This document shows positions 3,424 through 54,475 of a stretch of DNA of 54,475 nt, piece by piece; position 1 is the stretch's first letter; each line of letters starts with the position of its first letter. This DNA comes from Candidatus Magasanikiibacteriota bacterium. Lineage in GTDB: Bacteria; Patescibacteriota; Patescibacteriia; Magasanikbacterales; UBA922. The notes beneath the pieces were generated by a model. It saw nothing but the letters and a program-made list of their open reading frames with translations. It was not told the origin of the DNA and ran no database searches. The position numbers were made by a program, and so were the translations under genes. The stretch is taken from NCBI GenBank assembly GCA_018650645.1, contig JABIFP010000023.1:1-54475 (forward strand), in the 5' to 3' direction.

Positions 3424-3802
3424 TACTCGTGGGGAGTATAACAAACGATTTGGAAACTGGGGCGAGCGGCAAGCGGCCCTTTTTCTTTTGGAAAAAGGAT
3501 ATCGAATGGTAGAAAAAAATGCGTATATGCGATTTGGAGAAATCGATATTATTGCTATTGATGAATCAGAGGAGCAAATAGTATTGGTATTTATTGAAGT
3601 AAAAACCAGAAGAGGAGTACCAAACGGTATGGCAGAGCGTGCAACAGGATATAGAAAACAAAAAAACATGAAACGAGCTGCTCTGAAATTTTGTCTGCAG
3701 CGAAAGATATCAATTGAAACCACACCCATGCGCTTTGAGCAGATCAGCATCTATGTGATAGAGAGGCATATAGATATTCGGCATTATATTTTGCCAATAT
3801 AG
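3413..3802 (+). CDS. YraN-family (UPF0102) endonuclease-like protein
   Basis: GERQAALFLLEKGY...GEIDIIA...VFIEVKTRR pattern typical of YraN. Overlaps the upstream gene by 11 nt. Confidence 0.8.
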   Translation: MGRNTRGEYNKRFGNWGERQAALFLLEKGYRMVEKNAYMRFGEIDIIAIDESEEQIVLVFIEVKTRRGVPNGMAERATGYRKQKNMKRAALKFCLQRKISIETTPMRFEQISIYVIERHIDIRHYILPI

Positions 3803-7241: not shown

Positions 7242-8382
7242 ACTCTACTGGGTTTTTGATGGCATCGACTATCCGTTCTCTGGCTTGTTCTAGCGAAACG
7301 CCTTTAAGCGTTACGGATGCTTGCTGCGAATTTCCATATCCACCGAGTGGCGACAGAATCTCTTTTGCATTGAACATTTTTTCTACATGCAAAATGGCGT
7401 GTACTTGGTTATGTTCTGGCGTAACATGTTCATGTAGGAGTAGGGTAAGCTGCGCTTCCGGAGAATTGGCAATAAGTTCTTCAATAATATCGTAGAGTTG
7501 CTGCTCATCTGCACCAGATGTGGCAAAATCTTTTTGCGTAATGGCAGTGCTGACTAATCCAATCGATTCGTCAAAGCTTAAGTGTGCAAGTGCTTGGCCC
7601 CAAAGTCGCAATGTAGAAAGTGATTTTGTTTGATAGAGTTGTTTGATAATAAAATCTCTATCTGCTCCCATGCTTACCAATTTACTTGCAAGCGCGAGTG
7701 AATGTGGTTTAATGTGTTCTTTTTTGAAACTATTTGTTGCCGCAATCATTCCGGTAAGGAGTGCTGTCGCAATTTTTTTATTCATGGTACGCGCAGAAGT
7801 GTTGATCATCATGTTGGTAACAACTTCAGCGGTAGAACTGGCTGTAAGGTCAACAAGGTTTACTGTTCCGTAGTGATCGTTTTTAATATCCTGATCAATA
7901 TTAATGACCGGCACATCAAAAAAGAGATTTGCATTTTGTTCATACAGTGGCCCGAGTTCTTCCAAATCGTGTGCACCAAGTGTTACCACCAAATCGTATC
8001 TAAAATCAGATTGAGATGTTGCCACATGTTGGCGGGTCAAGAATCCACTTTCAGGTGTCACATAAATTTGCAGCTTCTGATCCTTTACATCATAGCTGAG
8101 TTCTTGCAGTCCGGCATCTTTCACATCGATAGAAATAAGGAGCTGCTGCAAATGCGGTACTTTTGGAGTAACGTGCTCCGCTCCATCAAGAAAGGCAAAT
8201 TTTTGTGGCACCACAAAATCATGCGATGCAATATCGATTTGCTTTCCTTGTTGTTCAAGCCATTCTTTTAATGCCAGTGCACTTCCAAGAGCATCGCCCT
8301 TATCATTTTTGGCAAACGCAATAAGCACGTGTTTAGACGAATCAAAAAGATGCTTGAGCTGTTGTTTCTCTGTTCTTGCCAT
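7240..8382 (-). CDS. DHH-family phosphoesterase (NrnA-like)
   Basis: NDKGDALGS motif I and DHHA1-like C-terminus. The position where I expect the DHH triad reads IDQDIKNDHYG (by eye; needs an alignment). Confidence 0.75.
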   Translation of the reverse strand: MARTEKQQLKHLFDSSKHVLIAFAKNDKGDALGSALALKEWLEQQGKQIDIASHDFVVPQKFAFLDGAEHVTPKVPHLQQLLISIDVKDAGLQELSYDVKDQKLQIYVTPESGFLTRQHVATSQSDFRYDLVVTLGAHDLEELGPLYEQNANLFFDVPVINIDQDIKNDHYGTVNLVDLTASSTAEVVTNMMINTSARTMNKKIATALLTGMIAATNSFKKEHIKPHSLALASKLVSMGADRDFIIKQLYQTKSLSTLRLWGQALAHLSFDESIGLVSTAITQKDFATSGADEQQLYDIIEELIANSPEAQLTLLLHEHVTPEHNQVHAILHVEKMFNAKEILSPLGGYGNSQQASVTLKGVSLEQARERIVDAIKNPVE

Positions 8383-8663: not shown

Positions 8664-9270
8664 ACGGGCTGTGGGGCCCTGAATAAATCTAAATCCCACT
8701 GAGAGGCCTAACCATGGCCACCGTTAACCCCGTTCAGGCCGCCTTTGCGCTGGATCTCTGGTTCTGGGGGGAGGACTTCGTTTCGATCCCCAAGGGCGTG
8801 ACCTTCGATATGGTCGTGATGGGGAAGGCTCATCTTCCGGGCAACTGGGAGAGGGGTGATGACGAGGTCCTCGGAGAGACCTTCCGGATCGAGCTCGAGG
8901 GTGGGCTGCACCTCTGCGTGTCGGAGGGGCAGTTCTGGCTCGGCCTGAGCCACCCCGAGGTCAACGAGGGGAAGCCCTTTTTCTCCTGGCGCTACAGGCC
9001 GGGGATGCAGACCGAGCACTCCGTTGAGGTGTTGGGGCAACAGGGATCGACTCGGGAGCAGAAGGTGCGTGCTCGAGCCCAGCGCCATGCGCGGCTCATC
9101 AACGCGCTCATGCAGCTTACCGAGGCTTCTCTGCGCCTCAGCTCCTTTTTCTAGCCGCGCGCAACGCGCGGAAGTCGTCCAGCTCACCCGAGCCGGGCGC
9201 CTGCAGAAGTTCCAACTCTGTAGACCTGCGAGCGACTAGAGTACCACTCGGTATTCGTCGCTCGCACATT
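8664..9270 (+). other. high-GC cassette 1 (approximate bounds)
   Basis: Abrupt composition step. Hand counts give 57% and 63% GC on lines 8761 and 8821, versus 35% on line 4021. Confidence 0.7.
8714..9154 (+). CDS. hypothetical Trp-rich protein (146 aa) encoded in high-GC cassette 1
   Basis: About 85% G/C at third codon positions by hand tally, versus about 65% for the antisense ORF. GAGAGG lies 7 nt upstream of the ATG. No family recognised. Confidence 0.75.
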   Translation: MATVNPVQAAFALDLWFWGEDFVSIPKGVTFDMVVMGKAHLPGNWERGDDEVLGETFRIELEGGLHLCVSEGQFWLGLSHPEVNEGKPFFSWRYRPGMQTEHSVEVLGQQGSTREQKVRARAQRHARLINALMQLTEASLRLSSFF

Positions 9271-16491: not shown

Positions 16492-16522
16492 GGTTTGGTT
16501 TTATATCAAAATTTGCTATGAT

Positions 16523-16559
16523 AAGGACGCGTTAATTTGGACGCGTCCTTTTCTTTTCT
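16523..16559 (+). terminator. intrinsic terminator of argS
   Basis: AAGGACGCG...CGCGTCCTT stem followed by TTCTTTTCT. Confidence 0.7.
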
Positions 16560-16584
16560 CAAACTTTGGCTCACGGAGGTGACC

Positions 16585-17727
16585 GTGCTAGTTGCGAATA
16601 GCGGTGTAAACCGCAACGAAGAAGCTGTCGCCCCCGAGGCGTCAGATGAGTTTCAAGAGGTTGCCCTGACGCGTGACGTCGGTGCCAACACGCTCGCGTA
16701 TGAGCACTCGATTTGTTTGCACCCCGAGCTGTGGAGTGAGCTGACCGCGATCGAACTCCACAAGTGGTTCAGCCCACGTAGCTGGCGCTACTGGGCGCTG
16801 ATGTTGCCGAGCTTCCTGCTGTTCCTGCTGAACGGTTGGTGGCGAGTGGCTGCGGCCTGGATCATCCAGACGCTGGGAGGTCGAGGCCTGTCAGTCCTCG
16901 TTGGGTCTGGCGTCAACAGGTGCTTTACCGTTGTCAGTAAGTTCGCCTACGAACTGCGCGAACTGGTGACTTCGAGTGGATCGCTTGCGATCGTTTACAA
17001 TTACGTCGTCTGGTCGCACATGGAAGGACTGCATCGGCAGCTGACGTGGGGTGAGCGCTACATGCGCTTCCACATGATGCAGCCGGATGCTGTCGCCGTA
17101 CGGCTTCGGGCCATCAAGACGTTTGAACAGGCGCTCAAGCGGCTGGAGAACCTTCTCACAGATCCTGAGCTCGGTCCGACGTTTACGGTCGAGTCGCCGC
17201 TGATATTCCCGGTCCTCGCTTGTGGTAACGCGCAAGCGGAGATCGACGCTGTCTACAGGCTGTACCAGGTCTTCCCTGAGTTCCGCGGACGGGTGAAGCT
17301 CCATCTTGTGGATGCCACTATGGCGCCACTGAGGGCAGCCGCGGATTACGCGGAAAATCGGGGCCTCGAGGGAAACTTTGAGATCTTCTGCATGAAGCTG
17401 CGGCCATACCTGCGCATGGTCAAGGAGCAGGGTTGGAAGATCTACATCCTCGACATCGTCGGGTTTCTCGACTATTACTCGGGGATCAAGATCGCGAGCC
17501 TTCTCGCTTTCATCAAGGATGTGGTGCAGAAAGGCGCCATGATCATCACCGCGCTCATCAGCAAGAGCAAGTTGGCCTTCTCAGTTCGCTGGTCGACCAA
17601 CTGGCCGCTCCTTCGCAGGTACACGAGGGAGCAGTTCACCTCGTTCTTGCTCAAGGCAGGTTTCGAGGGGAACATCACGATCATCTCCTGCATTGATGTC
17701 CACTTCGTGGCCGTCATCACCGTCTAG
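16585..17727 (+). CDS. membrane-anchored class I methyltransferase-like protein (380 aa) in high-GC cassette 2
   Basis: GTG start 5 nt after GGAGG (16575-16579); the ORF is open from 16537. TM-like segment YWALMLPSFLLFLLNGWW. C-terminal Rossmann-like strand pattern: VLACGNAQ, LHLVDAT, IYILDIVGFLDY, GAMIITAL. Confidence 0.7.
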   Translation: MLVANSGVNRNEEAVAPEASDEFQEVALTRDVGANTLAYEHSICLHPELWSELTAIELHKWFSPRSWRYWALMLPSFLLFLLNGWWRVAAAWIIQTLGGRGLSVLVGSGVNRCFTVVSKFAYELRELVTSSGSLAIVYNYVVWSHMEGLHRQLTWGERYMRFHMMQPDAVAVRLRAIKTFEQALKRLENLLTDPELGPTFTVESPLIFPVLACGNAQAEIDAVYRLYQVFPEFRGRVKLHLVDATMAPLRAAADYAENRGLEGNFEIFCMKLRPYLRMVKEQGWKIYILDIVGFLDYYSGIKIASLLAFIKDVVQKGAMIITALISKSKLAFSVRWSTNWPLLRRYTREQFTSFLLKAGFEGNITIISCIDVHFVAVITV

Positions 17728-17822
17728 TCCTTAGACAAACGCATCTGCAATGCGTTCAGGCTTCTACATATGCCTGAAAAGACAACCGTCGATACCCGCC
17801 AGGGAATCCGGAAGTCACAGCA

Positions 17823-17849
17823 CCCTCGGTCTTCGGACCGGGGTTTTTT
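17823..17849 (+). terminator. GC-rich intrinsic terminator with UUCG tetraloop (end of cassette 2)
   Basis: CCTCGGTC-TTCG-GACCGGGG followed by TTTTTT. Confidence 0.75.
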
Positions 17850-17868
17850 AATCCACCTTTGGTGGATT

Positions 17869-17906
17869 ATCCGCCGAAGCAAGGCGAAGCACTTGCGTAG
17901 GAGGAT
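17869..17906 (+). repeat. dispersed palindromic repeat, long variant (ATCCGCCGAAGC...GCGTAGGAGGAT)
   Basis: Shares both 12-nt termini with 33471-33498. Related to 21064-21089 and 24031-24056. Confidence 0.6.
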
Positions 17907-17919
17907 CACAAGTAGCGCC

Positions 17920-17948
17920 TTCAACTCTCGTACAAAATCTGCTACAAT
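17920..17948 (+). promoter_or_regulatory. promoter-like TTCAAC-17-TACAAT only 8 nt from the histidine kinase ATG (leaderless or near-leaderless mRNA)
   Basis: -10 at 17943-17948. ATG at 17957. Confidence 0.4.
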
Positions 17949-17956
17949 ACCTGCAT

Positions 17957-19642
17957 ATGCAAGAGGGTCTGTCACTCAATTATTTTTCGATCTCTGCGCT
18001 CATCAATGCCATGACCTCTCTTGGGCTTGGTATTTTTATTTTACTGACAAATCGGCAGCAGCGCGTGGCAAGATACTTAGTATATTTCTGTTTTGCGGTG
18101 GCAGCGTGGAGTATTCCATATTTTCTTTGGCAAATTTCTGATACGGCAGCCATGGCGTATTTCTGGTCACGCATGCTCATGTTTGGTGCCATCTTTACGT
18201 CTATTGCATACTTCCATCTTGTATTAGTTTTTTTGAAAAAAGAGAATGTTGAGGTGCACAGAATCATGTTTGCCATTTTTTACTTTTTTGTATTTTTCTT
18301 TACCATTGCAAATTTTACCCCATATTTTGTTGCCGGTGTGGCGCCAAAAATGGGCTTTGAATTTTGGCCGGTACCGGGGCCGCTCTACAGTTTCTTTTTG
18401 CTTGGGTTTTTTGCGCATGTAACATACGCATCCATATTACTCTTTAGAAAATATAAAAAAGCAAAAGGAATTCAGAAAAAACAAATCCTTCTTTTGCTGA
18501 TTGGAATTGGACTCGCATTTGTTGGTGGTAGTACAAATTATTTCCTTTGGTACAATATTCCGATTGCGCCATGGGGAAATGGGCTTGTGGCGGTATATGT
18601 ATTACTTACCGCATATTCAATCATGAAATATGGATTCTTGAGTTTTAAAGTTGTTGCGGCGCAAATTTTTACGGGATTACTAATCATGACAGGGTTAATG
18701 GATTTGGTAACCGCTAGAACAACAGGGCAGTTGATTGGGAGTGTGGTATCACTATTCGCCGTATCTGTTTTTGGTCTCATGCTTGTACGTTCCGTTGTTG
18801 GGGAGGTGACCAAACGAGAAGAGTTAGATCGGCTAGCAAAAAAATTAAATCGATTGAATGTAAAACTGAAGCAGCTTGATAGACAAAAGACAGAATTTTT
18901 ATCTATTGCTTCTCATCAGCTCAGAACACCGCTTTCTATTATGAAAGGGTATATCGAACTTATTGAAGACGGCGCATACGGAAAAATTACAAGAAAAACA
19001 AAACATATTTTAGATGAAATGGATGAGAGTAATGAGCGATTGGTAAAACTCGTGGATAGTTTCTTAAATATTAGCAGAATTGAGCAGGGGCGAACAAAAT
19101 ACTCGTTTGAAACGCTGAGCATGCGAGACCTTATCAGTAATGTAGTACACGAATTACATGATAGGGCGGAAGGAAAAGGGTTGAAACTTATTTGGAAGAT
19201 GCCAAAGACTAAGCTTATGACGTATATGGATGAAGAAAAAGTCCGTCATGTTATTTTCAACTTTATTGATAATGCCATTAAATATACTCCAACGGGTAAA
19301 GTGCGGGTATTTGTCACGCAAGAGCATAAAGGAATGAAATTTTCTGTAAAAGATAGTGGAATTGGATTTGATCCAATCGATCAGCCAAACTTTTTCCATA
19401 AGTTCTATAGGGGAAAAAATGTAGAAGGAGAGAATGTAAACGGTACAGGGCTTGGTATTTATGTGTGTAAGCAGTTTGCAGAGGCTCATGGAGGGAAAGT
19501 GTGGGCAAAGAGTGCTGGAAAAGGAAAGGGAAGTGATTTTGGCTTCTGGATCCCAGATCATAGAACAAGCGTCCATAAAAGAAAAGAAAAAGAGGGAAGA
19601 AGCAAAAAACAGCAGGTAGTAAACCAATACAGTACAAAATGA
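17957..19642 (+). CDS. sensor histidine kinase with multi-TM N-terminal domain
   Basis: About 8 hydrophobic helices, then H-box SHQLRTPL, N-box NAIKYTP, G1 DSGIGF and G2 GTGLGIY. Confidence 0.9.
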   Translation: MQEGLSLNYFSISALINAMTSLGLGIFILLTNRQQRVARYLVYFCFAVAAWSIPYFLWQISDTAAMAYFWSRMLMFGAIFTSIAYFHLVLVFLKKENVEVHRIMFAIFYFFVFFFTIANFTPYFVAGVAPKMGFEFWPVPGPLYSFFLLGFFAHVTYASILLFRKYKKAKGIQKKQILLLLIGIGLAFVGGSTNYFLWYNIPIAPWGNGLVAVYVLLTAYSIMKYGFLSFKVVAAQIFTGLLIMTGLMDLVTARTTGQLIGSVVSLFAVSVFGLMLVRSVVGEVTKREELDRLAKKLNRLNVKLKQLDRQKTEFLSIASHQLRTPLSIMKGYIELIEDGAYGKITRKTKHILDEMDESNERLVKLVDSFLNISRIEQGRTKYSFETLSMRDLISNVVHELHDRAEGKGLKLIWKMPKTKLMTYMDEEKVRHVIFNFIDNAIKYTPTGKVRVFVTQEHKGMKFSVKDSGIGFDPIDQPNFFHKFYRGKNVEGENVNGTGLGIYVCKQFAEAHGGKVWAKSAGKGKGSDFGFWIPDHRTSVHKRKEKEGRSKKQQVVNQYSTK

Positions 19643-20984: not shown

Positions 20985-21063
20985 TAGAATCATGAGCACG
21001 TGGTTCGGGAAGAGTAGATAGCTGTCTATTTTTCCCGCATCGCGGCAAACCACGCTCAGGTGG

Positions 21064-21089
21064 TCCGCCTTCGCTAAAGCTATGGCGGA
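21064..21089 (-). repeat. dispersed palindromic repeat (TCCGCC-TTCGCTAAAGCTAT-GGCGGA)
   Basis: Same family as 24031-24056 (inside rnpB), 33471-33498 and 17869-17906. Enclosed by a 12-bp inverted repeat (21025-21036 / 21102-21113). Confidence 0.6.
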
Positions 21090-21120
21090 TGAACTCTGTG
21101 TGGGAAAAATAGAACAATAC

Positions 21121-21206
21121 GCTCAGGTGGCGGAATTGGTAGACGCGCTGGCTTGAGGGGCCAGTGACTCGCAAGGGTCGTGGAGGTTCAAGTCCTCTTC
21201 TGAGCA
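21121..21206 (+). tRNA. tRNA-Leu (anticodon GAG), long variable arm, no encoded CCA
   Basis: GCTCAGG acceptor, GGCGGAATTGGTAGACGCG D-arm typical of tRNA-Leu, anticodon arm CTGGC-TTGAGGG-GCCAG, variable arm GACTC-GCAA-GGGTC, T-arm GGAGG-TTCAAGT-CCTCT. Confidence 0.9.
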
Positions 21207-21361
21207 CAAATATAAGACAGCCGATAAGGCTGTCTTATATTTGTGCGAAAAGAGAGAGGGTTTGAACCGGGGGTGGTAGGGGGCAGAGCCCCCTACATGC
21301 TGCGGAAAAGCTGGAAAAACCTGAAGGTTTTTACAAGAGGACACGAAGTGCCGAGTGAAAG

Positions 21362-21380
21362 GTCCTCTTCTGAGCACAAA
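21362..21380 (+). repeat. 19-bp perfect duplicate of the tRNA-Leu 3' end plus 4 nt of flank (GTCCTCTTCTGAGCACAAA)
   Basis: Identical to 21192-21210. Each copy is followed by its own hairpin (21204-21246; 21383-21406). Confidence 0.85.
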
Positions 21381-21628
21381 CGAAGACACTCGAAAGAGTG
21401 TCTTTTGTGTTGACAAAAACAAAAAAAACGTGTAATAAAGAAGCAGGCCCCCCAATTTTGGGGAGGAAGGACAACAATAAGGTGCATACAAAAGCTATAC
21501 CTCCGGATGAACTCCGGGGAGAGAGCGCAGTCTCTTGTCGCAGGGAAGGTGCGACAAGGCGGATTGTGCCGACGGACGCTGAAGGAAGGCCCACGCGTGT
21601 TCACACGCAGGCCCCTTTCGCGGGACGT

Positions 21629-22273
21629 ATGGTGCGTCACGGCAACTGGCAGGTTGAGGTCTTTTGGACTGAATCCTGCGCCGTGGTGGCCATGGGTGAG
21701 TACCACGTCGGGTTTCCTCGCGGAGACTGGGAGTGGTACTTTGGCGCGGTAGTGGATGATGTGTTCACGCCGCATGAGGTGATCGGGCGAGCGCGCTTCG
21801 ATCGAGGTGGGCTCAACATGAGCGCCCGCCTCTTCCATCGGAGCGTGGAGGTGGTCCCTGGCGAGTACTGGAACACCCATCGAGAAGATGCGCGGGTGTG
21901 GCGGGACTTTCTCGCCTTGACCCCGGATTGGGAGTCGCAGGCTTACGTCAACGCGCACAAGTACGCGTGCAGCCGCTCACCGAATCGGGAGATCGCTAAG
22001 GGCACAGCGCTCTACGCGGACTTCAAGTATGGCGAGCGTGCGTCGACGTGGGAAGGTTTCGACGTGCACGGCAAGTGCGTGTGGACGGGAGACTTCCAGG
22101 AGGATGCGTCGGTTCACACGCGAGTTGGGCCAGGACTGAGCTCGGAAGCGTCCGCCGGCAAGCTCGGCTGGGTGCGGATGCTCGGGATGACCCTGCCTTC
22201 GCATGGTGCGTACCAGTTGCTCCTAGAGCACTTCGTCGCCCCCATTGTGCCGATCTACAGCGCCGAGGTCTAG
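21629..22273 (+). CDS. hypothetical Trp-rich protein (214 aa from ATG 21629) in high-GC cassette 3
   Basis: Strong G/C third-position bias. The frame is open from 21398, so the start is uncertain (in-frame GTG at 21482 is also possible). No family recognised. Confidence 0.65.
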   Translation: MVRHGNWQVEVFWTESCAVVAMGEYHVGFPRGDWEWYFGAVVDDVFTPHEVIGRARFDRGGLNMSARLFHRSVEVVPGEYWNTHREDARVWRDFLALTPDWESQAYVNAHKYACSRSPNREIAKGTALYADFKYGERASTWEGFDVHGKCVWTGDFQEDASVHTRVGPGLSSEASAGKLGWVRMLGMTLPSHGAYQLLLEHFVAPIVPIYSAEV

Positions 22274-22348: not shown

Positions 22349-22356
22349 ACAAACAA

Positions 22357-22380
22357 AAACACACCCTATTGGGTGTGTTT
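22357..22380 (-). terminator. terminator hairpin for 22391..23707 (copy 1 of a duplicated hairpin)
   Basis: AAACACACCC-TATT-GGGTGTGTTT. On the minus strand it is followed by T-rich sequence. Confidence 0.65.
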
Positions 22381-22390
22381 TATATTTTAG

Positions 22391-23707
22391 TTATTTTTCT
22401 AGCGTAATGTCATTTTCAGAAAGCCGTACAGTGTATTTGGTAGGGCTAATGGGTGTGCTCTTATCTTTCATATGCTCTGGAATGCTTGCACATTTGTCTA
22501 CACCATCTCCAATAGCACAAAGCGGTTCACTATGAGATTCACCATTGGCAAACAGTTGATTATCACGTTTTTCTAGTTGGATGAGTGTCCTTCTAAAACC
22601 CTCACTAACCGGACTAGAGACAATCACATCGGTTTCATCTGTAAATGAAGCGACAAAGAAATAGCTCCCCATCCCATCAAATGCCGTAATAAGGGAATAA
22701 TATCGGTTAGCATCTCTGCAGACTGCTACAAATGACAAATTGTATACCGTTGGTTCTATCTGAAGCCATGGATACGCTAGTGGTTCGCGTTCATAAAATT
22801 CTTCAGCGCGAATTTGACTATCTATCATTTCCATTGCTCGTTCAAATGTATCATTTGAAATCATGTCATCTTTACTGACCAAGTCTAGACCTAAACATGC
22901 CTCAGCTGTCCAGGTGATATCACCGCTCGCTGAAAGTTCAGCTTCAATTTCAAATCGATATTCATTTTTTTCAATAGAAATTGGTTTTTGGAGTGATTCT
23001 GGAAGCAATGAACACGGTACAGTCATTTCATATCCAGGACATACAGGCGTTGATGGTGGTTCGCTAATTGCATAAATAGCATCATCCCGCTTTTCTAGAA
23101 TAGAGAATTGGTCAAGATACGAAGTGGCAGTTTTTTCGGAAACATGCAGACTACCAACTTTTTCTTCGACTGGGAATATTCCTTCTCGAGTATGATAGCT
23201 ATAGCCTAACGTAAAAGAGGCAATCCAATTATCGGCGCCGCGGGAATCTGGATCTGAAATATGGAGATATCTAAGATCCCCATCCTGACAGGCGGTAATA
23301 ATATGTAGGTTATTGGAATATTGCCCTATATTCCAAGGAGCATCAAGCTTTTCGGCGTATATTTTTTCAGCAGATTGTTCTCTGATTTTTTGATCAATTT
23401 GGGTGAGTGCATCTTGCGTTCTTTTTTCATTATACATTTCTTGTAGTGTCCACGCCTTCATGCCTCTGCAGTGTTCATCTGTCCATACTCTTGGTGGGTT
23501 TAATCCGTACTGATTTTCCTTTATCGTTTTTTTCGTAGACTCCAAATTTTTTTCCAGCGTCTCTATCTTTTCATGAAGTGGTTGTAGATCGGCAGTTTCC
23601 GCTTGGGGCACAGTAGCTGTTTCATCACCCTGTGAAAACACATACACAGATAAGCCTGTAGAGAGTATCGCTAAGGTAATTGCAATATATGCGAGGAGTG
23701 ATTTCAT
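22391..23707 (-). CDS. secreted hypothetical protein (438 aa)
   Basis: Signal-peptide-like N-terminus MKSLLAYIAITLAILSTGLSVYVFSQG. No family recognised. Confidence 0.8.
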   Translation of the reverse strand: MKSLLAYIAITLAILSTGLSVYVFSQGDETATVPQAETADLQPLHEKIETLEKNLESTKKTIKENQYGLNPPRVWTDEHCRGMKAWTLQEMYNEKRTQDALTQIDQKIREQSAEKIYAEKLDAPWNIGQYSNNLHIITACQDGDLRYLHISDPDSRGADNWIASFTLGYSYHTREGIFPVEEKVGSLHVSEKTATSYLDQFSILEKRDDAIYAISEPPSTPVCPGYEMTVPCSLLPESLQKPISIEKNEYRFEIEAELSASGDITWTAEACLGLDLVSKDDMISNDTFERAMEMIDSQIRAEEFYEREPLAYPWLQIEPTVYNLSFVAVCRDANRYYSLITAFDGMGSYFFVASFTDETDVIVSSPVSEGFRRTLIQLEKRDNQLFANGESHSEPLCAIGDGVDKCASIPEHMKDKSTPISPTKYTVRLSENDITLEK

Positions 23708-23744
23708 AAAGTAGTATTAAAATACAGTGTAAGTATACCACAAA

Positions 23745-23774
23745 CAAAAACACACCCAATCGGGTGTGTTTTTG
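23745..23774 (-). terminator. terminator hairpin downstream of rnpB (copy 2 of the duplicated hairpin)
   Basis: CAAAAACACACCC-AATC-GGGTGTGTTTTTG. Confidence 0.65.
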
Positions 23775-23776
23775 TT

Positions 23777-24208
23777 GCCTTATCGATCCGTATAAGCCGA
23801 ATTCTGTTCATCGCCAAAGCGATGGATGATCATTTATCTAGGGACGCTGTTGCCAGCGAACTCATGCGAGCTAACTTTTCGAAGCCTTGCGGCAACGCTG
23901 CTCTTGCTCCAGGTAGGGTTTACCACCGCTGCATGTCACCATGCAGGGAGTACAGTCGCTTTTGTCTATAGAACAAAAACATCCGTACACTTTTCACCTT
24001 TCCTCCTCTTCAACGAATTGAAGTATGTTGCCCTCCTTCGCTAAAGCTACGGCGGGCGGAGTAGTATTGTCTCTGTGGCACTGTCCCTCACGGCTTGTTG
24101 CCAAGACGCGGGTGGGCGTTACCCACTACCTTTTTTTTAGAACGAGTCTAAGGAGTTCGGACTTTCCTCTTACGCAAAGCGCAAGCGATCATCACTGGTC
24201 AATAAGGC
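23777..24208 (-). ncRNA. rnpB: RNase P RNA, bacterial type A
   Basis: The minus strand reads GAGGAAAGUCCGAACUCC (P4 5' strand), GGUAACGCC, ACAGUGCCACAGAGA, GGUAAACCCUACCUGGAGCAAG, CUAGAUAAAUGAUCAUCC and ACAGAAUUCGGCUUAU. P1 pairs GCCUUAUUGACC with GGAUCGAUAAGGC. Confidence 0.92.
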
Positions 24209-33470: not shown

Positions 33471-33498
33471 ATCCGCCGAAGCTTTAGCGTAGGAGGAT
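33471..33498 (+). repeat. dispersed palindromic repeat (ATCCGCCGAAGCTTTAGCGTAGGAGGAT)
   Basis: Same family and same orientation as the copy inside the rnpB RNA. Confidence 0.6.
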
Positions 33499-53994: not shown

Positions 53995-54475
53995 TCAGTT
54001 GCCACGGGCGTAGAAAACTTCAGTGATGTCCCCTTCGGGTGTGGCGCTGATTCGCTCCGTGAGCACACCATCTCCGTCCAGCTCAACCTCGATCCAGGCA
54101 CCATCCTCCTCGTAGTGGAGGGGAAGCTCCGTGCCGAAGTAGATCGCGCCTTCGAGGAGTGCGCCGCGACCATCGGAGGTGAGCTGGCAGTCGTTCGACA
54201 GGGGATTCAGGTGCAGGTACATCGGGTTGTCCAGCATCGGACGATCGACGTGTTCACCCAAGTTGCTGTCCCAAAATGATCCCAGACGGAACCACTCTCC
54301 CTCGATCACCCGGAGGTTCTCGCAGGTGTCGGTGGCCGGCGGGGGCACGTTGGCCTCTTCCCGCTGGCAGATGACCGGCGGGCTCGGGGTGAGGGACTTC
54401 TGAGCGAACCCATCAGGGCACGGCTCGTCGTCCTCCACGACCTCGCAGTCAACGTCCTCGATGCAGTCACGCACC
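53995..54475 (-). CDS. C-terminal part of a hypothetical Cys/Asp-rich protein in high-GC cassette 4 (5' end beyond the window)
   Basis: Strong G/C third-position bias in this frame. TGA stop at 53995-53997. No family recognised. Confidence 0.65.
   Translation of the reverse strand, partial: VRDCIEDVDCEVVEDDEPCPDGFAQKSLTPSPPVICQREEANVPPPATDTCENLRVIEGEWFRLGSFWDSNLGEHVDRPMLDNPMYLHLNPLSNDCQLTSDGRGALLEGAIYFGTELPLHYEEDGAWIEVELDGDGVLTERISATPEGDITEVFYARGN

Follow-up and report, generated by a model that had tools for sequence, protein, structure and literature searches.

The window analyzed here, the whole 54,475-nucleotide stretch of a Candidatus Magasanikiibacteriota contig (JABIFP010000023.1), carries directly after argS a gene whose base composition departs abruptly from its surroundings, raising the question of whether the gene is a recent arrival or a resident of the genome and what its product might do. 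Within 100 nt of the start the GC content climbs from about 0.41 to about 0.60, then drops back after about position 17900, and the GC content at third codon positions (GC3) is 0.76 compared with 0.33-0.36 in the neighboring genes of a genome with 40% GC. A preliminary description of the same DNA regarded the block as a cassette, meaning a discrete unit that is mobile or was recently acquired. The evidence assembled below makes it likely that 16585-17727 is instead a resident, vertically inherited gene of the Patescibacteria (CPR), which codes for a membrane-tied methyltransferase (MT), forms a module with a kinase gene and holds a GC equilibrium of its own, the repeat on its 3' side being unrelated to it. 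The features of the locus are collected in Table 1.

Table 1. Positions and properties of the features between the end of argS and the end of the kinase gene (window numbering)
Feature	Position	Strand	Details
Putative extended -10 promoter (TGCTATGAT), MT gene	16514..16522	+	Adjoins 5' arm of argS terminator hairpin
argS terminator hairpin and T-rich tail	16523..16559	+	Terminator scan (hairpin 16523-16550); 11-bp stem with 6 GC pairs; kept in L001
Shine-Dalgarno sequence GGAGG	16575..16579	+	5-nt spacer to GTG at 16585; read from sequence
CDS, protein with predicted MT fold	16585..17727	+	380 aa; GC 0.58; GC3 0.76
Long hydrophobic helix (codons), putative membrane anchor	16783..16875	+	Residues about 67-97, RYWALMLPSFLLFLLNGWWRVAAAWIIQTL; AlphaFold helix H67-97
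Rossmann-like methyltransferase domain (predicted)	17182..17724	+	Residues about 200-380; motif I VLACGNAQ (210-217), D243, DIVGFLDY (290-297)
Structured 3' UTR	17728..17849	+	H0 17739-17755, H1 17756-17777, H3 17781-17816, UUCG terminator
Hairpin H1	17756..17777	+	5-6 bp stem closing on G-C/C-G; loop UUC(N)A..AU(A/G)U
UUCG intrinsic terminator	17822/17824-17843 and U6 17844-17849	+	Terminator scan
Perfect 8-bp hairpin AATCCACC-TTT-GGTGGATT	17850..17868	+	Fold z -4.0; part of insertion without counterpart in L001
Dispersed imperfect-palindrome hairpin copy (TCCGCC...GGMGGA)	17869..17906	+	Absent from L001
Putative extended -10 promoter (TGCTACAAT), kinase gene	17940..17948	+	Ends 8 nt before kinase ATG
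HisKA_7TM sensor histidine kinase	17957..19642	+	Pfam HisKA_7TM 3.6e-16, HisKA 3.2e-16, HATPase_c 7.8e-25

The Shine-Dalgarno sequence, its spacing to the GTG codon and the 380-aa open reading frame all read exactly where the preliminary description had placed them, and the other elements it had credited to the gene, a structured 3' UTR and a terminator, are present as well. The motif GGAGGTGA upstream of the GTG is kept in the orthologue at locus L001 (GGAGGTGA-n-GTG), which makes the 396-aa version proposed by the gene caller, starting from TTG 16537 within the argS terminator hairpin, less likely than the 380-aa version. Differences between the window and L001 genes fall on the three codon positions as 0.36/0.24/0.57 with a dN/dS of 0.195, a pattern of substitutions that marks the MT gene as bona fide protein-coding sequence under purifying selection. 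The codon-position substitutions and the confident protein model both fit the + frame, and an overlapping antisense gene was dropped as a real feature.

The putative promoter box of the MT gene reads TTTGCTATGATAAGG in the window, TTTGGTATGATAGG in L001 and TTTGCCATGATAGG in L036/L072, a conservation maintained despite saturated synonymous sites; a sigma-70 scan gave no promoter-like site at 16514..16522. This box would act as the MT promoter, with transcription in the window probably starting from it (at about 16529) where it touches the 5' arm of the argS terminator, and the argS hairpin may also serve as a 5'-UTR element of the MT gene. The transcript would then run through the conserved, hairpin-rich 3' UTR and end at the UUCG terminator, the kinase gene being read from a putative promoter of its own. 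The kinase promoter box has a counterpart at equal spacing in L001 (TGGTATAAT) and resembles the TG-n-TAnAAT boxes that precede the kinase gene in L019-L036; with 17940..17948 in this role the kinase mRNA would be leaderless or nearly so. Because a terminator separates the MT and kinase genes in the window, joint transcription of the two is not obligatory there.

The AlphaFold2 model of the 380-aa protein (pLDDT 87.9 and pTM 0.88) contains seven strands, β1-β7 as assigned with DSSP, with flanking helices and a C-terminal hairpin formed by β6 and β7. Comparison of the model with the PDB using Foldseek returned 566 matches at E<=0.001, and among the 50 matches listed nearly all are SAM methyltransferases, with structural neighbors including O-methyltransferase family 2 proteins (PDB codes 5i2h, 3mcz and 2r3s), SgvM (PDB code 8ftr) and PDB code 3ocj. 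The TM-scores to solved structures are only 0.35-0.5, and no solved protein is therefore a close homologue; PDB sequence searches found nothing, whether the query was the protein alone or a profile of 10 sequences. The preliminary description had proposed profile searches as a check; these match the relatives and not the window protein itself, which has no methyltransferase match in Pfam even at E<=1 and falls below every curated model, including those of NCBIfam. At E<=0.01 the 39 relatives match Methyltransf_25 in 27 cases, Methyltransf_31 in 24 and Methyltransf_20 in 8, and one relative (MBI2444007.1) is named by NCBI as [quoted passage not shown]. The fold of the window protein is thus assigned from its relatives and from structure prediction; AlphaFold, Foldseek and the Pfam matches of the relatives agree on a predicted class I SAM-methyltransferase fold with a complete seven-stranded domain, as first proposed, and the strands originally picked by eye correspond to β1, β2, β4 and β5 of the model. 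The family comprises 104 representative homologues. Two scans of GTDB species-representative genomes, by MT and by kinase, gave no close relative, and a word-index search with a 39-sequence profile added only one weak new match.

The glycine-poor motif I noted earlier proves to be a property of the whole family, reading L-A-C-G-N-A in the window protein and A-C-G-[SN]-A family-wide with A212 and G214 invariant; compared with the canonical E/DxGxGxG, the small residues are kept and the canonical glycines are not. Asp-243, within the sequence LHLVD at the end of β2 (strand 237-243 in the model), is invariant in the 39 sequences and occupies the acidic position for the ribose hydroxyls, and all residues invariant in these sequences (R175, A212, G214, D243, G293, D296, Y297 and W340) are present in the window protein. 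The known class I methyltransferases (Methyltransf_25/_31/_12/_11/_20) have the same seven-stranded fold with an acidic residue at the end of β2 and a small-residue loop after β1, and a helical region ahead of the catalytic domain is a further likeness to small-molecule methyltransferases. Differences from the known enzymes occur in the A-C-G-N-A form of motif I, in the N-terminal extension with its hydrophobic helix and in the link to a 7TM kinase gene. The hydrophobic segment, described previously as lying at the N terminus, is internal and moderately hydrophobic, with a Kyte-Doolittle 19-residue mean of only 1.45 in the window protein; the eight orthologues checked have means of 1.3-2.2, mostly at the equivalent N-terminal position. 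The predicted layout of the protein is an N-terminal region of ~65 residues followed by the long hydrophobic helix, a helical region and the MT domain. The modeled helix probably ties the protein to the membrane; given its moderate hydrophobicity, a peripheral or monotopic attachment is conceivable in place of a membrane-spanning one.

The position of the gene is closely conserved. In L001 the orthologue also lies between argS and the kinase gene, with 61% identity for the MT and 79 and 83% for the flanking genes, and more distant homologues, at 25-31% identity, are found in the order (valS-tyrS-)argS-MT-kinase-bactofilin-DAGK, complete or as far as their contigs extend (L019, L020, L021, L024, L027, L031 and L072). 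The order valS-tyrS-argS-MT-HisKA_7TM kinase-bactofilin-DAGK is found in about ten divergent lineages, the kinases of which are only 48-59% identical to the window kinase. The argS-MT-kinase position is occupied in every syntenic relative recovered (L001, L019, L020, L024, L027 and L072, with parts of the order in L021 and L031), and no presence/absence polymorphism occurs at the argS-kinase site among them. In 49 of the 64 loci a 7TM kinase gene in the same orientation starts <400 nt downstream of the MT gene. PemK/MazF toxins are encoded directly upstream in several relatives. The pairwise identities of the MTs correlate with those of the kinases (r 0.56, Mantel p about 5e-4), and an identical 12-tip clade is monophyletic in both trees. 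These comparisons point to the MT and the HisKA_7TM kinase being a conserved two-gene module that is inherited together in uncultured Patescibacteria. Within the clade the MT identities stay flat at 25-30%, with little phylogenetic signal, and replacement of an MT by the allele of a relative is therefore conceivable.

The occupancy of one slot in about ten lineages and the co-divergence of the MT with its kinase speak against the cassette as originally described. The case for a horizontally acquired GC-rich cassette, with its own Shine-Dalgarno sequence and terminator, inserted after the argS terminator and having a repeat at its edge, is built on a composition that departs sharply from the norm at every codon position (GC3 0.76 compared with 0.34), on sharp GC boundaries, on the excess of arginine over lysine in the window protein (as in proteins of high-GC genomes), on the presence in the 54-kb window of three further GC-rich single-ORF blocks and on the repeat copy directly 3' of the terminator. 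In the trees, however, the MT and the kinase are congruent, and GC3 stays high although synonymous differences between the window and L001 come close to saturation (pS about 0.7). The edges of the MT gene contain no recombinase or other mobility gene and no att/attC or other recombination site, its flanks being argS and the kinase gene; neither tblastn against plasmids and phages nor a scan of IMG/VR viral contigs found MT relatives, PHROGs and PADLOC gave no matches for the window protein, and the repeat is missing from the L001 orthologue and accompanies only two of the four GC-rich blocks. The only genomic-island property found is the atypical base composition, and the GC excess is present in relatives too. 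Recent acquisition as a cassette is on these grounds highly improbable. Descent of the MT block and the other GC-rich blocks from one ancestor was considered and rejected, the proteins of the latter matching none of the relatives' loci; block 3, which the preliminary description had listed as a like object (cassette 3), is an ORFan beside tRNA-Leu. The case of the MT gene illustrates that composition-based island calls can be wrong, and it contradicts the common assumption that atypical composition means recent transfer.

The compositional bias itself recurs across the clade. The GC3 excess amounts to +0.26 to +0.43 in the window, L001, L019, L021, L023, L024, L030/31 and L036/72 and to +0.14 to +0.17 in L020 and L026-28; all strongly GC-rich members found occupy this locus in genomes of low GC content, and remote family members in other genomes have little GC excess. 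The coding RNA of eight clade members folds more stably than codon-shuffled controls with z values of -3.3 to -11.3, compared with -0.3 and -1.0 for neighboring genes and a mean of -1.2 (minimum -2.95) for 12 ordinary GC-rich ORFs; the value for the MT gene of the window is only about -3.5, just past the control range. Across 50 genes the GC3 excess correlates with z (rho -0.56, p 3e-5). The excess in folding stability is greater on the sense than on the antisense strand, and RNA-level rather than DNA-level processes are therefore indicated. The consensus energy of the window and L001 sequences folded together is below that of codon-column shuffles (z -3.4). A single conserved RNA fold in the coding region was rejected, with 0.31 of the window-predicted pairs kept in L001 compared with 0.38-0.47 in slid controls; any RNA-level selection is for general foldedness and not for one conserved fold. 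Most likely the GC-richness is a composition equilibrium specific to the gene and held by RNA-level selection, not a trace of recent transfer.

A historical origin of the bias would involve an ancient transfer from a high-GC source followed by repeated replacement or gene conversion from a GC-rich pool, for example GC-biased conversion at a hot spot. The MT has about twice the evolutionary rate of its flanks (dN/dS 0.195 compared with 0.05-0.08), which such a history would fit, as it would the flat identities within the clade, the lack of conserved base pairs between the window and L001 and the small GC excess of remote members. It is at odds with the failure to find GC-rich donor copies, the strongly GC-rich members all being at the same locus in low-GC genomes, with the monophyly of the clade for both genes and with the larger folding excess of the sense strand. 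Published effects of biased conversion on bacterial GC3 are far below +0.3-0.4. Transfer with replacement is accordingly an unlikely source of the GC-richness, and an equilibrium held at the RNA level is preferred. With either RNA-structure selection or biased conversion as its cause, the MT gene offers a clean natural example for the study of gene-specific composition equilibria.

Folding confirms the structured 3' region with three hairpins and a UUCG terminator that was recognized in the preliminary description. The 3' UTR has a minimum free energy of -43.6 kcal/mol (z -3.8; equaled by none of 200 shuffled sequences), the L001 3' UTR has the same four-hairpin layout with a z of -4.4, and the two align far better than the saturated synonymous sites predict. 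Hairpin H1 occurs 34-50 nt after the MT stop codon in six lineages (the window, L001, L021, L023, L030 and L016), in which 30 of 30 cells pair and three of the five pairs have compensatory changes; its G.U wobbles fit the + strand only. An H1 covariance model run over 580 kb found only the six source sequences, and a search of Rfam with 17728-17906 gave no match even at E<=10. An apparent match of the H1 loop to the kinase start region was rejected as arising from the palindromic CAUAUG/ACAUGU core. In being a GC-rich island that folds above shuffled controls, and in the covariation of its 3' hairpin, the MT gene resembles the GC-rich structured RNAs of AT-rich genomes (rRNA, tRNA, RNase P RNA and large non-coding RNAs); it differs from these in that the island is protein-coding, the base pairs of the coding part are not conserved and there is no Rfam match. 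The GC3 excess, the stability of the coding RNA and the conserved 3'-UTR hairpin appear to be three things both unexplained and unreported.

The genomes of Patescibacteria are tiny and their signaling is mostly unknown. As a best guess, the MT acts on a lipid-like molecule of the membrane that is coupled in function to the kinase; by analogy the enzyme would methylate a lipid-like or other membrane-embedded molecule, the state or product of which would be tied to what the 7TM kinase senses. Hints as to the substrate are two homologues that are fusions, one with an MMPL lipid transporter and one with a PlsC-type acyltransferase, the DAGK-type lipid kinase encoded two genes downstream and the precedent of phcBSR. 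In this quorum-sensing operon of Ralstonia the methyltransferase PhcB makes methyl 3-hydroxymyristate, which is sensed by the histidine kinase PhcS (PMC8578825, PMC11960443). The two systems are alike in that a membrane sensor kinase gene follows directly on the MT gene in the same orientation (as in the 49 of 64 loci given above) and in the plausibility of a lipid-derived substrate. The window module differs in containing no response regulator, in its patescibacterial host and in the terminator between the genes, and the likeness is a functional analogy only.

The MT might instead act on a protein, either on the adjacent kinase in the manner of a CheR-like adaptation enzyme or on a pilus component. 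The conserved adjacency to a sensor kinase would suit this, as would L016, where the MT gene lies between two 7TM kinases in a type IV pilus cluster (PilM, response regulator, pilin and PilD), and CheR gives weak matches in two of the 39 members. These matches are marginal (E 0.006), however, the best structural matches of those listed are small-molecule O- and C-methyltransferases and the fusions are to lipid-handling domains, which leaves a protein substrate improbable. An MT that accompanies a 7TM sensor kinase in many lineages is a concrete and testable candidate for the way in which these episymbionts produce or perceive a membrane or lipid signal. A bolder combination of these elements, possible but doubtful, is that in one Patescibacteria clade the MT gene has throughout its history stayed at its own GC3 equilibrium, as much as 0.4 above the genome, since its transcript must be highly folded, that the RNA of the 3'-UTR hairpin helps to control the kinase and that the two proteins are a signal-synthase/sensor pair. 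On this reading the folding might protect against endoribonucleases, for example the PemK/MazF toxins, or give the RNA a second role, and the pair, if true, would occur in organisms for which none is known so far.

The 8-bp hairpin and the repeat copy that follow the terminator are both real, and their adjacency to the gene, to which the preliminary description had attached importance, is incidental. L001 has the same terminator without the hairpin or the repeat, the stretch from about 17853 to 17910 forming a gap in the alignment, no copy accompanies GC-rich blocks 1 and 4, and the copy at 33472 adjoins no GC-rich block. Judged from this alignment, the hairpin and repeat entered the locus later as a small insertion that has no connection with the MT gene. 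The dispersed repeat family proposed earlier stands insofar as its copies exceed chance (at 17870, 21064 and 33472, with 0.06 expected) and is small, with only three in 54 kb. The repeat is similar to REP/MITE elements in that several intergenic copies of a short, imperfectly palindromic hairpin occur in the window and are lacking from the corresponding sites of a related genome, and unlike them in its low copy number and in having no transposase identified. In shape its hairpin matches a helix within the RNase P RNA gene of the same organism. Two of the three copies lie just after terminators, and one has at its flank a 12-nt duplicate of the 5' end of tRNA-Leu.

The 380-residue product of the window gene following argS (MT) matches no Pfam, NCBIfam or PDB sequence model, and a word-indexed search with it returns a single homologue, P0002 (61% identity), from the related metagenomic contig L001. 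HMMER, run exhaustively over 1.84 billion representatives, gives 104 relatives (E ≤ 0.001), most of them 300-400 amino acids long and aligning across residues ~115-378. Among 39 aligned family members, Methyltransf_25 is matched by 27, Methyltransf_31 by 24 and Methyltransf_20 by 8, and Arg-175, Ala-212, Gly-214, Asp-243, Gly-293, Asp-296, Tyr-297 and Trp-340 are invariant. One relative (MBI2444007.1, Candidatus Magasanikbacteria bacterium, Patescibacteria/Parcubacteria group) is named a class I SAM-dependent methyltransferase by NCBI. The AlphaFold2 model, calculated with the family alignment, is confident (pLDDT 87.9, pTM 0.88) and shows a helical N-terminal half with one long helix (67-97) followed by a canonical seven-strand Rossmann-like domain. 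Foldseek gives it 566 PDB matches at E ≤ 0.001, the 50 listed being nearly all SAM-dependent methyltransferases, mostly small-molecule O-/C-methyltransferases. The class I methyltransferase fold and strand assignment proposed in the preliminary description are therefore correct. The glycine-poor motif I it noted is a feature of the whole family, reading A-C-G-[SN]-A, poor in glycine but composed of small residues. The aspartate that binds the ribose never varies, and the protein is likely to bind SAM. The hydrophobic segment placed at the N terminus is present but internal (residues ~67-97) and only moderately hydrophobic. MT belongs to a very well-known enzyme class, as an uncharacterised and probably membrane-associated variant.

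The features listed in the preliminary description all lie in the sequence where it placed them. The public gene call is 396 amino acids long and starts at TTG 16537, which falls within the argS terminator hairpin, and the L001 orthologue retains GGAGGTGA followed by GTG, so GTG 16585 is the better start. At the start codon GC content rises from ~0.41 to ~0.60, dropping again past ~17900, and GC3 is 0.76 in MT compared with 0.33-0.36 in tyrS, argS, the kinase gene and the lipid-kinase-type gene DAGK.

Features of the MT locus in window coordinates
Feature	Position	Strand	Remarks
Terminator (argS)	16523-16550		terminator scan
MT Shine-Dalgarno GGAGG	16575-16579	+	read from sequence; 5 nt ahead of GTG
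MT ORF	16585-17727	+	GTG start; 380 aa
Terminator (MT)	17824-17843, then T6		terminator scan
8-bp hairpin	17850-17868		after MT terminator
Palindromic repeat copy	17869-17906		directly after 8-bp hairpin

In L001, P0002 likewise sits between argS and a HisKA_7TM kinase gene, with 59-61% identity between the MT proteins compared with 79% and 83% for the flanking proteins. Remoter homologues (25-31% identity) in L019, L020, L021, L024, L027/28, L031 and L072 share the order valS-tyrS-argS-MT-HisKA_7TM kinase-bactofilin-DAGK, whole or to the contig end, and in the Magasanikbacteria contig L016 the homologue is flanked by two 7TM kinase genes within a type IV pilus cluster. A metagenome scan adds 80 further loci; where at least 1 kb of sequence lies downstream of MT, a 7TM kinase gene follows within 400 nt on the same strand in 49 of 64. 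Pairwise identities of MT and kinase correlate (r = 0.56, Mantel p ~5e-4, n = 33), and neighbour-joining trees of the two proteins have a 12-member clade and several sub-clades in common. Plasmids, phages and IMG/VR yielded no MT relatives, and MT is flanked by neither a mobility gene nor a mobility site. The interpretation of MT as a cassette is thus rejected by the argS-kinase slot conserved in many lineages, the co-variation with the kinase and the lack of relatives in those collections or of a mobility signature; MT was already in place beside its kinase before these lineages diverged and has stayed there. The kinase gene has no Shine-Dalgarno sequence at its start, and its putative extended -10 box, TGCTACAAT in the window (within 17940-17959) or TGGTATAAT in L001 (within 3585-3605), ends 8 nt ahead of the ATG; its mRNA would thus have little or no leader.

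The MT enzyme is probably membrane-associated and would methylate a lipid-like or membrane-embedded substrate, as suggested by two homologues fused one to an MMPL transporter and the other to a PlsC acyltransferase, by the nearby DAGK-type lipid kinase gene and by the small-molecule methyltransferases among its structural neighbours; methylation of a protein, either the adjacent kinase or the pilus, is less likely than that of such a lipid-like substrate. That the pairing of MT with a 7TM sensor kinase is conserved suggests that enzyme and sensor form a coupled module, for which PhcB and PhcS of Ralstonia would be a documented methyltransferase-kinase analogue (PMC8578825, PMC11960443).

The GC3 excess of MT over neighbouring ORFs is +0.42 in the window, +0.28 in L001, +0.38 in L019 and L024, +0.30 to +0.40 in L021, ~+0.43 in L023 (+0.54 over PemK), +0.26 to +0.29 in L030/31 and +0.34 to +0.41 in L036/72; it is smaller in L020 and L026-28 (+0.14 to +0.17) and near zero in remote family members (~-0.2 to +0.2, mostly <0.1). 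MT is essentially the sole GC island in each ~10-kb locus. GC1 and GC2 are raised too, and the protein has more arginine (6.6-11.7%) than lysine (2.5-5.3%), the reverse of the kinase in low-GC genomes. Synonymous differences separating the window from L001 approach saturation in gene and flanks alike (pS ~0.7), with dN/dS of 0.195 for MT compared with 0.05-0.08 for the flanks, and divergence is much greater in the other lineages. One ancient transfer with neutral decay thereafter appears incompatible with GC3 of 0.6-0.76 in all these lineages; MT must instead have its own composition equilibrium or else undergo repeated replacement.

The MT coding RNA is far more stable than synonymous-codon permutations, with z of -3.3 to -3.8 in the window, -3.8 in L001, -3.4 in L036, -5.6 in L016, -6.2 in L019, -7.4 in L024, -7 to -9 in L030 and -10.6 to -11.3 in L021, compared with -0.3 for the window kinase gene, -1.0 for argS and a mean of -1.2 (minimum -2.95) for 12 ordinary GC-rich ORFs. 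The signal is distributed along the gene, is stronger on the sense strand and correlates with GC3 excess (rho = -0.56, p = 3e-5, 50 family members). The two-sequence consensus energy of window and L001 is below that of codon-column shuffles (z = -3.4). One conserved fold is unsupported, since base pairs predicted for the window are kept in L001 no more often than in slid controls, and the data support generic foldedness. A PemK/MazF-type toxin gene with a small ORF lies immediately 5' of MT on the same strand in L019 (5373-5948), L021 (2111-2817) and L023 (1-642), and is absent upstream of MT in the window and L001; such a toxin may bear on the GC-rich, folded mRNA through avoidance of AU-rich cleavage motifs.

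The gene's own Shine-Dalgarno sequence, structured 3' UTR and UUCG terminator were described accurately: the 122-nt UTR carries three hairpins and the terminator (fold z = -3.8), a four-hairpin layout common to the window and L001, and has no Rfam match. Hairpin H1 occurs 34-50 nt past the stop codon in the window, L001, L021, L023, L030/31 and L016-18 as a stem of 5-6 bp with the loop UUC(N)A..AU(A/G)U. Pairing is intact in 30 of 30 cells, compensatory changes occur at three of five pairs, and the G.U wobbles are compatible with the sense strand only. Four lineages with longer UTRs have further hairpins in common. The GC excess specific to MT throughout these lineages, its excess folding and the conserved hairpin are reproducible, and literature searches found no description of any of them.

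The dispersed repeat claimed beside MT is present there, but the family amounts to three copies in the window (17870, 21064 and 33472). Alignment with L001 shows ~57 extra nt in the window (roughly 17853-17910), consisting of the 8-bp hairpin and the repeat, between the terminator and the kinase promoter common to both. The proposed association of the repeat with cassette edges does not hold: it is missing from the orthologous locus and from GC-rich blocks 1 and 4, and copy 33472 comes after the terminator of a gene of ordinary composition (45% GC). The repeat therefore lies next to MT by coincidence, as an independent small hairpin of mobile or duplicative character. Copy 21064 (palindromic hairpin 21064-21089) lies in a ~58-nt insertion just 5' of tRNA-Leu(GAG) (window 21048-21132, L001 6690-6720), bounded by a 12-nt direct repeat of the tRNA 5' end, ACGCTCAGGTGG; insertion and duplication are missing in L001. 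A helix at 24025-24057 (-) of the RNase P RNA gene (23775-24206), GCCCGCCGUAGCUUUAGCGAAGGAGGGC, matches the repeat in sequence pattern and fold (4-bp stem, 1x1 mismatch, 2 bp, 3x3 internal loop with G/A-rich strands, 2-bp GC stem, UUUA loop) and is 86% identical to copy 21060-21088; the repeat may be a derivative or a mimic of this helix. A 33-nt direct repeat (94% identical; 22349-22381 and 23740-23772) containing the terminator-like hairpin ACACACCC-ATTG-GGTGTGT brackets a 438-aa minus-strand gene (22391-23707), and a similar hairpin occurs in L001 (~7810-7835).

Three more GC-rich single-ORF blocks, block 1 (8714-9154, +), block 3 (21479-22273, +) and block 4 (53995-54475, -), have GC of 0.60-0.63 and GC3 of 0.65-0.82 in a window of 42% GC overall. 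They match nothing in Pfam, PHROGs or PADLOC, nor by tblastn in ~100 related loci, and block 3 is an ORFan with no match among 5.8 billion proteins. Its coding RNA beats codon shuffles (z = -3.7; blocks 1 and 4, about -1.7). Block 3 begins just past a duplication of the tRNA-Leu 3' end (GTCCTCTTCTGAGCACAAA, 21192-21210), repeated 171 nt downstream at 21363-21381 with a hairpin after each copy, an arrangement resembling an att scar left by an integrative element. The region downstream of tRNA-Leu is wholly different in L001, where a short GC-rich stretch (7429-7700, ~0.53 compared with 0.40) with overlapping ORFs on both strands forms a distinct small GC island at the variable site occupied by block 3 in the window.
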